Assembly (NCBI GenBank): GCA_964016885.1
Contig: OZ024741.1
Location: 97,774,001-97,838,000, forward strand
DNA length: 64,000 nucleotides
Reading direction: 5' to 3'
From: Eledone cirrhosa
Lineage: Eukaryota
Positions within the stretch are counted from its first letter, which is position 1. The number at the start of each line of letters is the position of its first letter. A program made the position numbers and the translations under genes. Of the stretch, positions 1 to 54,675 are shown piece by piece. Below the pieces are notes generated by a model. That model saw only the letters and a program-made list of their open reading frames with translations. It made no database searches and was not told the DNA's origin.

Positions 1-1669
1 GTGAAAGTATCTTTGGTACCAATAAATTTGGTCTGTTGGGGGTTGAAAATAGACTTGCTATTAATCATCAAAACTAGTTGTAGTATAATTAACGCGATAA
101 ACGTTGAACAAGGTGAAGGATTTCACCAGCATCAATATTCATCTCAAATGTTTTATTTACAAAATTCGTTAAGAAGATACTGACTTCTTTACACCAGTTA
201 AATACATCGTCTTCTCTAGCCCTAATGATGTGATAAATTTAATATGAATGCAGTTTAAATAGTCACAGCAACATTAAATATATATTTATGACTCTTAAAC
301 AATTCATATGGGTTCATAAACGTCTTTATTACCACATGTATTGTAAATTCTGAAAATACCTCTGTAGCAACTTGACACTATGGTATAATGTTCAGATTAA
401 ATTTAGATATTTAGCGGTTGATGAAGTATTTGAGTTTAATTTTGGTTTGAGCAATGAAGAAAAGTTATAAACGGAAGGAAATTAATGCGAAATGGTGTTA
501 ACAAACTTGAAATAAATAGGAACTGTCATCTTATGAAACAGGGATATTTGAGTGGAAGAACAAAAAGGTCTGCAATCAGAATTCAAAGAGCAATCCTGAA
601 AAAGGTAATCTAATCTTCGATTAAATAGAGTTTATTATGTTGCTTAATATAATTGGATGAAAACCAGGCTCATAAACCACTTGGTAATTAATGAGACAGA
701 CAGAGTATATATATAAACACGAACGAAAAGGTGAGGAAGGAATATTACAAACTCAATAGCTAATTACGTAAAAGAGAGCAAAATAAAAATTAATGGATAA
801 TAATCAACACTACTCTAACTATTCCAATAAGGAATTATAATTATAATCACACAGCTGTGATATAAAGATTGCTATTTGCCTATATGAATGTGTCAAATGT
901 ATCATGAGGAGAAGAACATTAATTAAAACTACGAATATTAAATTAGATGTGACACTAAATCAGAGAATACGAAAAAGCCCATGCATACGAATACTTATGA
1001 TTAGATGAACTGGTAGACTACTACTTTAAATAATGAAGGGGAAAACTGGAGAAAAATACTACAGAAGAGACAACCTAATATTTAATGTCAGATAAAAGTC
1101 AATATGCAACATTCACTTATGGACAACAGCTTCAATAAAATATGTTGCACGTTATCCAAATTATAGATCTTAGACTGGAAAATTAGAAGGCTATTAAAAC
1201 ATTCCGTGATCACAATCACAAATCGGATATAGATGAGGCAACAATCCTGCATACAGAAGTATTTGAAAGTAACAACAGCATTATAAAGGAAAATAATCAC
1301 AAGGAATTACACAATGAAAAATCTGAACACGTGGGACGAAATGGCCTAAGCATATATCCCCGGTGTCGGCCAACCCATACCGAAAGGAAATCTGTTCTCT
1401 TCTTGTCACCACATTATTATGTTTTCTCATATACATGGTTCCGACACGTGATTCAGGTCATCGGGTAAGCTGCGATCAATATGATGCAATACGAAAGAGG
1501 TATGCTGTTGTTCGTTCGACCCACGTGTTGCATATATCTTGTGTGCAATCGTGTTATAAACATGCACGCACAAACATATATACATACATATGCATGCCTG
1601 TATTCTTATATATATATATATATGTATGTATATATATATATATATATATATATATATATATATATACAT

Positions 1670-1743
1670 GCTGTGATATATATTTCAATGACGGCACTGG
1701 CCGCACTGTTGTGTGTGCGAGTGTCTCAACATCGTCAGACAGC
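1670..1743 (-). ncRNA. Type I hammerhead ribozyme (family A)
   Basis: Minus strand reads GCTGT-CTGACGA-long stem II-GAAA-TATAT-ATC-ACAGC, with stem I GCTGT/ACAGC and an AUC cleavage triplet. Copies at 2693-2766 (-) and 3745-3818 (+) have mutated GAAA boxes. Confidence 0.8.
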
Positions 1744-3820
1744 TTGTTACATAATAAGGTTATGTTTCCGAGGCAATCCAAATTGAATCGACATGGGAAC
1801 GGACGAAGTGTGTGCTTTTGGGTTCTTCATCCGTTCCCATGTGAGTACCAATTCACCCCCACCGGTCTGCGCAGGCGCATGTCCGAAGGAAGTTGACCAT
1901 TAGCTACCGCAGATTTCAAAGATATTCGTTTAGTCAGTTCGCCCACTCAGTCAAACAATGATCCATTCAGGCCTGTACTGCTACCCATCCCGTCTGTGGG
2001 AGTCAGCCGAAAGCCAGAGGGGATGGGCGAGTGTTAGTTTTTACAGGTCACAATACTACCTCTCACCAAGCATGGACAGTACAACTGACCATGAACCCCT
2101 AAGAGAAAATATCCTTAATTCTAGGTATCATGGCTTTAGATTGGAAGTTATGAGGGAGAGTTGGAAATAAAAATAAAAATTTTAAATCGAAAATCCTAAA
2201 TCAAATATCAGAAATTATAAATTAAAAAATTAAAAAATTAACAATTAGAAATTAAAACATTTTTCAAGTGAGAATCCGGATTGAGGTGAGTAAAGAAACA
2301 TATAGATTGAAATGAGTAAATAATATACAGAGTGATGTTTAAGTAAGAAGTTCTGAAAGGGATCCTAATGTCACAGTTACACTATCCATATATTGAACGA
2401 TAGTGCCGTACATTAGAACGGAGTGTAAACTACAGTATTAAAGGCAGTAGTCAATCTGGGGTTTCCATCCCCATGGTAGAGGGAATTTCCAGATGTAGCT
2501 CGTGGTTGGTTCCGTCTTCTCCACCATATCGGTTACATCATAGAGCGCTCAACTAATTGGAGCTAAATTCTTAGGGTAAACATTGATGCAATTCAAATCA
2601 AGCACTCAACGTAATTTTTCCACATAGGAGTGACGGAGTAATATCCAATAAGGAAAAGCGAAGTAGTTTCAGATGTTCAAGTCTTTAATAATGCTGTGAT
2701 ATATATTTAAATGACGACACTGGCCACACTGTTCTGTGTGCGAGTATCGCGACATCGTCAGACAGCTTGTTACATAATAAGGTTATGTTTCCGAGGCAAA
2801 AACTAAGATAAACCCCTATTTTCCTGCACCATATCGCATTTGAACAGAAGCCCCCTCAATTCAATCTATACATGGACAAATTGACAATCATATGGATCAT
2901 TTTGCATATATGTACTCTGTGTTTTTGGATTTATTCATTATTGGTTCTTTTCTTTTGTGTACTTGATATCTGTTTTTTTTTGGTTTTGTTTCATGTGATG
3001 GAAATTATGGCTATGTACCAGATTGACTACTGCCTTGAATACTGTAGTTTACCCTCCGTTCTAATGTACGGCACTATCGTTCAATATGTGGATAGTGTAA
3101 CTGTGACATTAGGGCCCCTTTCAGAACTTCTTATTTAAACATCTCTCTGCATATTATTTACTCACTTCAATCTATGTTTTTTTACTCACCTCAATCCGGA
3201 TTCTCACTTGAAACATTTTTTAATTTCTAATTGTTAATTTTTTAATTTATAATTTCTGATATTTGATTTATGATTTTCGATTTTAAGTCTTAATTTTTAT
3301 TTTCAAGTCTCACTCGTAACTTCCAATGTAAAACCATGATACCTAGAATTAAGTATATTTTCTCTTAGGAGTTGATGGTCAGTTGTACTGTCCATGCTTG
3401 GTGAGAGGTAGTATTGTGACCTGTAAAAGCTAACACTCTCCCATCCCCTCTGGCTTTCGGCTGACTGTCACAGAGGGGATGGGTAGCAGTAAACTATGGT
3501 ACAGGCCTGAATGGGTCATTGTTTGGCTGAGAGGGGGAACTGACTACGCGAGTTTCGTTGAAATCTACGGTGGCTAATGGTCAACTTCCTTCGGACATGC
3601 GCCTGCGCAGACCGGTGGGGGTGAATTGGTATTCACAGGGGAACGGATGAAGAACCCAAAACCATACACTTCGTCGATTCAATTTGGATTGCCATGTCGA
3701 TTCAATTTGGATTGCCTCGGAAACATAACCTTATTATGTAACAAGCTGTCTGACGATGTCGCGATACTCGCACACAGAACAGTGTGGCCAGTGTCGTCAT
3801 TGAATAATATATCACAGCAT

Positions 3821-3872
3821 TCAGTAATGCACTGGGTAATTGCTGGCCTTGTGCCTAAAGTAGAAACAATTA
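3821..3872 (+). mobile_element. SINE 3' fragment
   Basis: Matches the 3' end of the SINE at 39725-39847 (aattgctggccttgtgcc..agtagaaacaattat). It is absent from the homologous position in the 2570-2798 copy. Confidence 0.7.
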
Positions 3873-4205
3873 TTATTAAAAGACTTGAATATCTGAAACT
3901 ACTTCGCTTTTCCTTATTCGATATTTACTCCGTCACTCCTATGTGGAAAAAGTACGTTGAGTGCTTGAATTGAATTACATCAATATTTACCCTAAGTATA
4001 TATATATATATATATACATACACATATATATATATATATATATATATAGGGCGTTAGCACCGGTGTTTTTTTTATATAGAGGTGGCTTTCTAAATGTTTA
4101 TCTATAAACATACCCTGTTTCTTTAGAAATACGAAATGTCTATACATAACTGTATACAGCTATGCTTAAAGCTAAATCCTAATTATATATATATATATAT
4201 ATATA

Positions 4206-52962: not shown

Positions 52963-53389
52963 ATAAATATATATATATATATATATATATATATATATAT
53001 ATATATCGTTGGGTCATGTTCACTTAAAAATGATTTATAAATGATTAAAATACACACAGATATGTCTGTCTTTCAATCTTCTGTCTCACAACCACTATCT
53101 CTTCCTTCTCTCTATATATATTGATGAAGGTAGCCGGAAAAAACCCGTATTTCGGGAACTCGTGAAATTTGTTTTATTCCATTTGTATTCCCATTTCAGG
53201 GGCAACTTCCTTTCAAAGTATTTTATCGTTATGCGCCGTTTCGGCTATATTAAATTACAGACGAGACACAATTACAGAGTTTTAGTAGTTTATAGGGATA
53301 TATGGTCAAACCGACACGCGTGCTACCCTACCGCTTTGAACTAGTACCGGATTTTCCAGCCATTAACTGCTCATAGGTAAGATGTCTCT

Positions 53390-53700
53390 CTGGAGTAGCA
53401 TCATTCTCGATAACCTCTTTGCACATGACTCATATTTGTCAGCAGTAAGATGAACCCGCTATATGACGAGAAAATCCTTCCGATGGGGAAAGCTACGAAC
53501 GCAGTTGTCAACCTCCGTCATCGTATCTGGCGTAAGACTGGAACTATTCACCAAGACACAGGTCTATAAACCGTCTTGTTAAGCACACTCTTTTAAGGGT
53601 TACAATCTCAAACAACTTCAAATCTTTCAGAATGTTTATCTGCAGGCAATTTTCACAAAGAGCAAAATTGTAGGCATTGTATGTTTCCCATGCAATCACA
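53390..53700 (+). mobile_element. Highly decayed RTE LINE remnant
   Basis: MGKATNAVVNLRHRIWR..., then TKTQVYK. Confidence 0.45.
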
Positions 53701-54367
53701 ACTACGCTGGTGTGGCCTTGTTAACATAATATGAGACCGTTCAGCAAGTAGACATGGAAATGAAAGACGGGAGAAAATTGGGTCATAATGGGATCAGGAA
53801 TTTTGAAACCGTCTGTTTCCATCGACAATAAGAATCAGGGAAAAGGCAAAAAAATATCATACCAGCAAATTATCACATAATACTCATCCATGGATTTGTT
53901 TGCACATCCTTGGTTGGCCTGAAATGTCATGTCCGCCATAAACTCACGAAATGTATCAAATTAGATCTTCATAGTACATCGCAATCGAGGGGGGGGGGGG
54001 GGGGGGGTATCTCATTCTCTCTTCTTCGCGTCTCTCTCTCTCTCTCTCTCGAGAGAGAGGGGGGGAGCAGAGAGAGAGATACATATACAACTGTTGTTTA
54101 TGATAACTTTTACACATATACATTATCATATATACAGTTCGAAATGCAATTTCGCGCACTCTATTATACACAGATTCTCCTTCGCCCACTCTCAAATATA
54201 AGCAAGTAAACACACTCACACAATCGCACATACTCCCACACACATAGACTTCATGTACAGATACATGAAGAGGTCTATGCAACAGTTGAATATACATATT
54301 GCAATATGTATCAGTCACCACAACTTTATGTACATTTTCACTCTCATATATATATATATATATATAT

Positions 54368-54675
54368 AATTAGAAATTAGAAATTATAAGCTTTCACGGT
54401 ATTTTAGACTAAAGAAATTTCTAGCCTGATAGTGGGGTTTATAACCCTCGGAGAAATGGAAAAAGATGAGTGTTGCCGTACACAGCATGCCGTACATCCC
54501 ATGTACGGCAACACTCATCTTTTTCCATTTCTCCGAGGGTTATAAACCCCACTAACAGGCTAGAAATTTCTTTAGTCTAAAATACCGTGAAAGCTTATAA
54601 TTTCTAATTTCTAATTTTCAAACTCGCGCACCGTTTTAAAAACATACTTACATGTTTACATTTATAATTTGCTTG
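54368..54675. mobile_element. Fold-back element with tail, within (TA)n
   Basis: Arms 54368-54482 and 54502-54616, tail 54617-54675. No complete hammerhead found. Confidence 0.8.

Follow-up and report, generated by a model that had tools for sequence, protein, structure and literature searches.

Fold-back insertions of Penelope-like elements in (TA)n tracts of Eledone cirrhosa probably arise by priming at two fixed internal points

Results

Fold-back insertions in a 64-kb window

We analysed a 64-kb stretch of the 3.0-Gb genome of Eledone cirrhosa (GenBank assembly GCA_964016885.1, contig OZ024741.1, positions 97,774,001 to 97,838,000), hereafter the window, that is rich in (TA)n runs and inverted repeats. 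It contains nine fold-back insertions, which we assign to Penelope-like elements (PLEs): in each, one arm lies flush on (TA)n and the other arm runs into an unpaired tail, the arms being 95-98% identical (Table 1). We call the point at which the tail-less arm meets the target the inner start, and the distal end of the tail the outer start. An earlier note on this DNA had described this shared architecture, which we found at the nine window loci and in 76 of 98 pairs, from about 35 families, in a wider survey; the one-sided tails that it saw at 27391-27889 and 54368-54675 were borne out in families H and I. The fixed start that it attributed to tail-less arms is exact in families F (..ACCACTT|TA) and E (..ATAACAAT|AT), is constant in family J only to about 6 nt, a subfamily difference, and at 1668 is displaced to a minor site, which lies roughly 45 nt upstream of the usual inner start of family A. 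The arm at 19931, counted before among the F fold-backs, is a solo arm without a partner, and the tails, given as 60-80 nt, measure about 58-90 nt in the window and 25-199 nt in the survey.

Table 1. Fold-back insertions, solo arms and family A hairpins in the window
Feature	Position	Strand	Details
Family A composite insertion	1668..3996	+	inverted arm 1668-2799 crossing the tandem junction, spacer, direct arm 3018-3820
Family A insertion, distal part	3821..3996	+	52-nt multi-copy insert 3821-3873, tail up to 3996
Family A second hairpin, GCTC..TTGAGC	2547..2564	-	6 nt 3' of the outer start, where the unit continues in tandem
Family A first hairpin, ACTC..TTGAGT	3925..3962	+	mirror copy 2604-2641 (-); 7-10 nt 3' of the usual inner start
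Family E (Neptune-like) fold-back	16927..18040	-	tail 16927-16982; arms 16983-17192 / 17833-18040; hammerhead core motif in both arms; spacer contains sequence from both arms
Solo tail-less F arm	19930..20002	-	flanked by TA runs; no partner, not a fold-back
Family H fold-back	27392..27888	-	tail 27392-27452; arms 209 nt; 27533-27562 (-) and 27779-27808 (+) predicted as type I hammerhead with U3-A8 core
Family J fold-back	27942..28398	-	tail 27942-28022; hairpin 28003-28024; arms 183 nt; 28079-28127 (-) and 28294-28342 (+) predicted as type I hammerheads
Family F (Hydra clade) fold-back	30302..33322	+	tail-less inverted arm 30302-30815; broken frame 31007-32700 with reverse transcriptase and C-terminal GIY-YIG; inner start at 33173 and hairpin at 33180-33200; tail ending at 33237; (CT)n from 33238 to 33322
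Solo tailed J arm	33360..33626	-	predicted hammerhead 33489-33537; without partner
Family J fold-back	34590..36199	-	tail 34590-34686; arms 255 nt; spacer 1 kb
Short F fold-back	37250..37489	+	minimal hammerhead core 37289-37314 (-) within the tail-less arm 37250-37355; tailed arm very short; (CT)n after the tail 37393-37456
Family E fold-back	41905..42366	+	tail 42308-42366
Family J fold-back	50523..52962	+	arms of some 264 nt; 1.8-kb spacer, no open reading frame reaching 90 codons; predicted hammerhead 52769-52817; hairpin 52872-52893; tail up to 52962
Family I fold-back	54368..54675	+	arms 122 nt; tail 54617-54675; neither hammerhead nor CTC/GAG hairpin found

The arms are 3' ends of elements that encode a reverse transcriptase

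Long copies carry one open reading frame (ORF) in which a PLE reverse transcriptase (RT) is followed by a C-terminal GIY-YIG endonuclease (EN), as read in the frames of families F, 0, 18, E and 6. Families F and 0 have RWR, DKT, a CxCX5C linker, GIY-YIG without CCHH, a unit shorter than 3 kb (2.1-2.2 kb in F) and a (TA)n target. Hydra clade PLEs share these traits, with RWR or RWK (Craig et al. 2021, PMC8557442), and family 18 shows the linker and the EN. Family 6 carries DKG, and family E, read from broken frames, has a CX4CxxC linker and Cys/His in the EN, which suggests a Neptune-like element; Neptune PLEs have a CX2-5CxxC linker ahead of a C-terminal GIY-YIG that contains CCHH. The Hydra motifs were read by eye in open frames, and a Pfam search of the PLE frames of these five families gave no match. 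Judged from these sequence features, the fold-backs are 5'-truncated, EN-bearing (EN+) PLEs, mostly of the Hydra clade, and other traits of EN+ PLEs are present as well, namely tandem pseudo-long terminal repeats (pLTRs), an inverted 5'-truncated copy and an optional tail. No ORF was found in the copies of families J, H, I and A that we examined; hammerheads, the hairpin described below and the shared end rule point to a PLE origin for them too. As the arms are 3' ends of RT-coding elements, the proposal that such insertions are retrotransposition products and not DNA transposons of the miniature inverted-repeat (MITE) kind was upheld; a MITE was rejected on the asymmetric termini and on an inner sequence that is not amplified as a fixed unit. 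An affiliation with Naiad elements, which the earlier note had cited as favouring microsatellites, was dropped: the EN is C-terminal and not N-terminal, the RT motif is DKT or DKG and not DKA, and predicted hammerheads are present, whereas Naiads have no canonical one.

These ribozymes are predicted only, and not in all families to which they had been ascribed. A hammerhead descriptor gave seven matches in the window, in families J and H, versus 0-1 in each of 20 shuffles. Family F passes the descriptor at L223, F and E show the core motif in the window, family 0 has only the 3' half, 5' of the inner start, and the descriptor found no hammerhead in I or A. An Rfam scan of the window returned no hammerhead at E<=1, only microsatellite-driven miRNA noise.

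Family 0 is young: 40 loci are 99-100% identical across 500 nt, and its frame stays open over 686 codons or more (L261-L280; L262:341-2400). On its sequence, it is likely a recently active Hydra-type PLE. Family A is non-coding (longest ORF at most 108 codons) and forms head-to-tail arrays of a unit of about 1.3 kb (L248-L251); it is retrozyme-like, without a hammerhead found, and abundant (2037 search candidates). A family E palindrome of about 6.2 kb lies at L308:235-6422, with arms of about 3 kb, one tailed and one tail-less. Among metagenome contigs no relatives were found, and the hairpin was examined in this genome.

Fold-backs end at two fixed internal points, nearly always one per end

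We surveyed 1.264 Mb, made up of the window and its flanks, eight 100-kb blocks and twenty 10-kb stretches around F matches. Fold-back stubs cover about 47.5 kb of the 1.064 Mb of sampled blocks (59 elements), densities that are biased upward because four of the eight blocks and all the 10-kb stretches were picked close to F matches. Families J, E and 0 were surveyed through block sampling. The survey started from 424 inverted pairs, of which 164 had a flush TA end once a duplicated segment and a tandem array had been removed, 108 had no inner TA run, and 98 were left after merging shared ends. A segment of about 25.6 kb, insertions included, is tandemly duplicated at C4:353.11-353.16 Mb (L161-L170). 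Runs of (TA)6 number only 30-33 per 100 kb at C1:150.0-150.1 Mb and C3:120.0-120.1 Mb, versus 115-284 in the other blocks, and fold-backs are few in these two.

Among the 98 pairs with a flush TA end, the other end lay 20-199 nt from TA in 76, with a family-specific tail length (25-199 nt overall); 10 were flush at both ends, 1 lay at 5-19 nt and 11 at 200 nt or more. Inspection by eye of the 11 pairs below 20 nt assigned two to a symmetric MITE family, two to hidden one-tail cases, one (family 0) to a pair tail-less at both ends and one (E) to a pair tailed at both ends, the remainder being unassigned or simple repeat. Both ends are sharply placed within families. At 159 F sites, taken from the genome assembly, 80 copies run into the tail and 79 do not, the latter nearly all being followed at once by (TA)n or (CT)n(TA)n, and two sites account for the ends of all 19 E arms that bear an ORF. 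Family 0 ends were also taken from raw Illumina reads of restriction site-associated DNA from two other samples, mapped to family 0: loose (TA)n ends pile up exactly at the two sites of the family, 371 (3170 and 2760 reads) and 451 (8109 and 8753), ratios that restriction sites bias, and strand-change joints are present. Family 0 hairpins have support in raw short reads, where the earlier note had asked for long ones.

The two ends are not used independently. Exactly one tail was found in 51 of 53 F pairs, a set biased by 21 pairs that came from a query containing both arms. The rule holds when these are left out: an arm-only query gave one tail in 13 of 14 F pairs (hand tally). Partners of F arms selected for their tail were tail-less in 15 of 15 cases, about half being expected under independent choice, and E pairs were one-tailed in 5 of 5, plus L302 and L308. 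The tailed end had been equated with the RNA's 3' end; however, in near-full or tandem copies the tail runs on toward the ORF, at about 16 of 29 loci in F, 6 of 20 in family 0, 2 of 20 in E and in tandem A. Since this continuation is constant element sequence, both starts are internal.

Signals at the start sites

Representatives of 15 of the 35 families carry a stem of the form N-CTC..GAG-N at a distance of 5-12 nt on the 3' side of the inner start, compared with a mean of 0.6 (maximum 3) in 1000 shuffles and with 0-2 in upstream windows. Its loop is 12-61 nt long and its outer pair covaries (A-U in 9, G-C in 4, G-U in 2); the families are related, so that these 15 are not independent events. 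Family 36 has GTTC..GAAC instead (by eye). Families 0 and A carry a second hairpin 6 nt behind their outer start, with G-C where the first has A-U, and family E repeats AATATCG at both starts.

In family F, a (CT)n tract of 2-27 units separates element from target at 13 of 78 ends without a tail and at 50 of 73 with one, compared with 62 of 2865 TA boundaries (2.2%) as background and 2 of 71 non-F tail ends. The F element has no CT tract at either start site, and (CT)n was therefore likely added at initiation; expansion after insertion may be an alternative. Loss of the tail by deletion between the TTCTACC repeats of F was rejected, as ACC is absent from tail-less (CT)n ends.

The two arms and their junctions

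Either arm may be the longer one. Of 30 spacers, about 8 belong to the tailed and about 10 to the tail-less arm, the rest being uninformative (hand tally), and the long ORF-bearing E arms end tail-less in 12 of 19 cases and tailed in 7. In L123 and L134 the tailed arm consists of the tail only and there is no palindrome; E arms start within the tail in L310, L313 and L315, and the read joints 307-393 and 310-390 of family 0 are tail-only arms as well. Without a palindrome no strand of L123 or L134 could have copied itself, which rules out simple snap-back of a single cDNA. An interrupted TA run is duplicated on both sides of the insertion at L134:1440-1640 (about 13 nt), the sole visible target-site duplication, next to a tailed arm that is tail only.

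The arms of a pair also tend to stop together. In 16 of 26 less-biased F pairs the stop points of the two arms are no more than 12 nt apart (permutation mean 4.75, with none of 20000 permutations reaching 16), and the same holds for 15 of 19 short F pairs versus 5.9 by permutation. Subfamily sites are discordant between arms at 17 of 181, versus 34% for random pairs, and a survey of the collected loci, which missed the short L201, counted 84 same-family inverted pairs and no different-family pair. The shared stop points and the shared haplotype suggest that the arms are likely one RNA copied twice.

Small inserts or overlaps of 0-2 nt, as end-joining would give, occur at 40 of 47 junctions between the arms; 25 have inserted bases and 7 an overlap of at least 3 nt. 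These inner junctions, said before to be variable, are not always so: 4 of 4 copies of family 5 turn within the same few bases, and most short copies of family 0 fold at 52-62 nt. A tally of endpoints, put forward before as a check, gave ends fixed at two sites in the loci surveyed, together with near-identical inner junctions in family 5. In raw reads the family 0 turn clusters at L262:307-314, at TTAGTC, 29 nt after TATTTAAA. We take TATTTAAA to be TATA-like and TTAGTC to be initiator-like; 29 nt apart (L262:282-316), they coincide with the fold-back point, and to judge by these motifs the turn may be a transcription start. In that case both family 0 cDNAs would be primed at the 5'-proximal pair of sites and extend to the 5' end of the RNA, a run-off that would explain why stubs are more than 100-fold deeper in reads than the ORF.

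Other features of the window

A symmetric element at 47091-47925, with 103-nt inverted termini in TA and a second copy in the flank, is not of the fold-back kind and presumably is a Tc1/mariner-type MITE. A further PLE family with C-terminal EN lies at 6787-9100 and 21906-22708, its frame spanning 7544-8878. The two copies share their end site, which is followed by (TA)n in one and by (CT)n(TA)n in the other. More PLE frames are found at 9257-9987 and 23080-23637. A broken RT of the long interspersed nuclear element type (Pfam RVT_1) occupies 54908-57079, and upstream of it, on the minus strand, is a frame resembling an endonuclease. A 462-nt inverted pair (40521-40982 / 46513-46974; 98.7% identity) encloses 5.5 kb. 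The sequence TGCGCA(T/G)GCGC, which we take for an NRF1-like promoter motif, occurs at 1868, 3599, 17278 and 30397, in arms of the unrelated families A, E and F.

Discussion

Two primed ends on one RNA as the probable mechanism

Taken together, we consider it probable that these PLE insertions end at two fixed internal points, one per end, because both cut ends of the target prime on the same RNA. The counts thus support what had been proposed from the window, namely that both target ends prime, one of them at a fixed second start, and that the two cDNAs are joined. The element protein would cut both strands in (TA)n, and each cut end would prime at a different internal point. An RT dimer may be bound at two signals, the bulged N-CUC..GAG-N hairpin in Hydra-type families and a short AATATCG repeat in E, and at both starts 1-4 nt of TA may pair. 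The cDNA begun at the outer start would follow and displace the inner one, since the RNA, we propose, is not degraded; both cDNAs would often run off the same RNA 5' end, and host end-joining would link their 3' ends. In F, the enzyme may slip on the first template bases and so produce (CT)n. The full scheme, a programmed twin priming in which one RNA carries two RT-positioning signals read by a dimer, with telomerase-like slippage that seeds (CT)n and with the spacing of the signals setting tail length, is put forward tentatively, as a possibility that we rate below an even chance.

Several observations weigh against two primed ends. About half of the F copies (14 of 28 unique loci, hand tally) are not two-start fold-backs: L125, L131, L135, L185 and L197 have a non-canonical internal second start, as second pieces do in L1 twin priming, and others are solo arms. 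Among the 53 F pairs, one has no tail and one a full plus a partial tail, and there are the tail-less/tail-less pair of family 0 and the tailed/tailed pair of E. The strict hairpin pattern fails in 20 of 35 families; F lacks a clear second hairpin and repeats TTCTACC at both of its starts. Target-site duplications, a check suggested earlier, were not enriched (4 of 109, null mean 1.25, maximum 5), and a survey for paralogous empty sites gave 1 of 120. L201:1504-1655 is a chimera in which a tailed F arm meets an inverted tail end of family 0, each lying flush on (TA)n, which means that two RNAs can serve one insertion; in 7 of 51 pairs the arms disagree at one F site. L133:1384-2200 may resemble L201. 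Finally, work on Poseidon_Ac saw no difference between strands in the start site, although pairing per product was not measured (Frangieh et al. 2024, PMC11167929).

The chimera and the seven discordant pairs are what priming on two RNAs would give. There, an asymmetric dimer would hold two transcripts, the shared haplotype would come from one dominant source locus, and the one-tail rule and arms of either relative length would follow without strand displacement. We find this unlikely, as equal stops at the scattered positions 29, 68, 109, 265, 341 and 561 nt are hard to obtain from two molecules and 84 of 84 surveyed pairs are same-family despite many coexisting families.

In another reading both ends are primed, but most of one arm is produced by the longer cDNA, which folds back and copies itself as far as a short stub begun at the other start. 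Arms of nearly equal length (less than 30 nt between them in 46 of 76) and a shared haplotype would then be expected, and self-priming has been proposed in PMC3846280. The turn needs pairing, however, of which the 7 overlaps of at least 3 nt at 47 junctions, against inserts at 25, show little, and fold-back copying is unnecessary for the tail-only arms of L123 and L134; we rate it as quite unlikely.

The tail-less end could also be cut rather than primed, an endonuclease resolving the intermediate at an inner TA-like site, which is the reading suggested in PMC8557442. Inner sites are indeed often TA-like over 1-5 nt, and the tail of D. virilis Penelope is needed for endonuclease recognition, as cited in PMC11167929. 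This is nevertheless highly unlikely here: (CT)n without a following ACC between inner site and target at 13 of 78 F ends indicates a start of synthesis, the signal is a covarying single-strand hairpin, and RT starts at both sites in vitro (PMC11167929). That the insertions are DNA MITEs, have lost one tail by deletion or are assembly artefacts is barely credible in spite of their MITE-like look and the near-identical inner junction of family 5 (4 of 4), since the arms are 3' ends of RT-coding elements, differ by 6.3% with almost no common private changes (2 in 3185 sites), vary in junction bases even in family 5, would not be one-tailed in 51 of 53 pairs after random tail loss, and have joints and both ends in raw short reads.

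Relation to known systems

The earlier note had seen here its best candidate for an undescribed system. The shape and two internal start sites are, however, already in print (PMC8557442, PMC3846280, PMC11167929); what we did not find in print is retrotransposition by a one-site-per-end rule, with either arm longer and with tail-only arms, nor the frequently shared stop point and haplotype of the arms, the covarying hairpin near the inner start (15 of 35 families) and near the outer start (two families), or the (CT)n at both starts of family F. A literature search, with most subscription papers outside its scope, gave no paper stating PLE twin priming, start hairpins or slippage. Hydra clade PLEs are known to have the inverted 5'-truncated copy, the one-sided tail and (TA)n targeting, and PMC8557442 names the origin of inverted pLTRs and one-sided tails as open. 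Their tails are 30-40 bp and ascribed to endonuclease resolution, in contrast to the tails of 25-199 nt, the counted one-tail rule and the start hairpin reported here. In the text consulted, PMC8557442 does not mention the hairpin, which its supplementary Hydra consensus files may contain.

For Poseidon_Ac in vitro, both strands are cut and extended, two internal RT starts bound the tail and a dimer is predicted (PMC11167929). The AT-rich target and a start near a stem-loop downstream of the hammerhead are likewise shared with our families, but the Poseidon_Ac starts lie in an AC-rich stem-loop, whereas here they lie 5-12 nt 5' of a CUC/GAG hairpin with short TA pairing. That study calls the later integration steps unvalidated, and it neither assigns the two sites to two ends of one insertion nor explains inverted copies; its main text holds no site pairing, on which Figs S1-S2 may bear.

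Twin or dual priming of L1 (PMC2837659) shares priming from the second end, head-to-head cDNAs and weak or absent microhomology at the inner junction. L1 starts first at the poly(A) end and then at a changing point far upstream, which gives pieces without overlap. The two starts described here have fixed internal positions near each other, and for that reason the arms overlap into a palindrome. A side product in L1, twin priming would be a main route here. We rejected an L1-type product itself (arms mostly overlap, no poly(A), target-site duplication only in L134), though the mode of action is like twin priming. Adineta vaga Penelope (Arkhipova et al. 2013, PMC3846280) has the same head-to-head pLTR, an optional 31-bp tail on one copy and palindromic junctions, explained there by self-priming on an antisense template; either arm being longer, together with tail-only arms, favours two primed ends in our case. 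Tc1/mariner-type MITEs also have inverted termini beside TA, but their ends are symmetric and fixed, whereas these are asymmetric and grade into RT-coding elements.

Implications

The counts give sharp predictions, namely one site per end, the same RNA for both, and a hairpin spacing that sets tail length, which the existing in vitro system can test. PLE stubs would pass for MITEs in an annotation, and perfect hairpins in this genome come from them in large number. PLE RTs and telomerase are sister groups, and through this kinship a start-positioning RNA helix and reiterative slippage at initiation would bear on the origins of telomerase. If the proposed slippage is true, PLEs also seed new (CT)n microsatellites.

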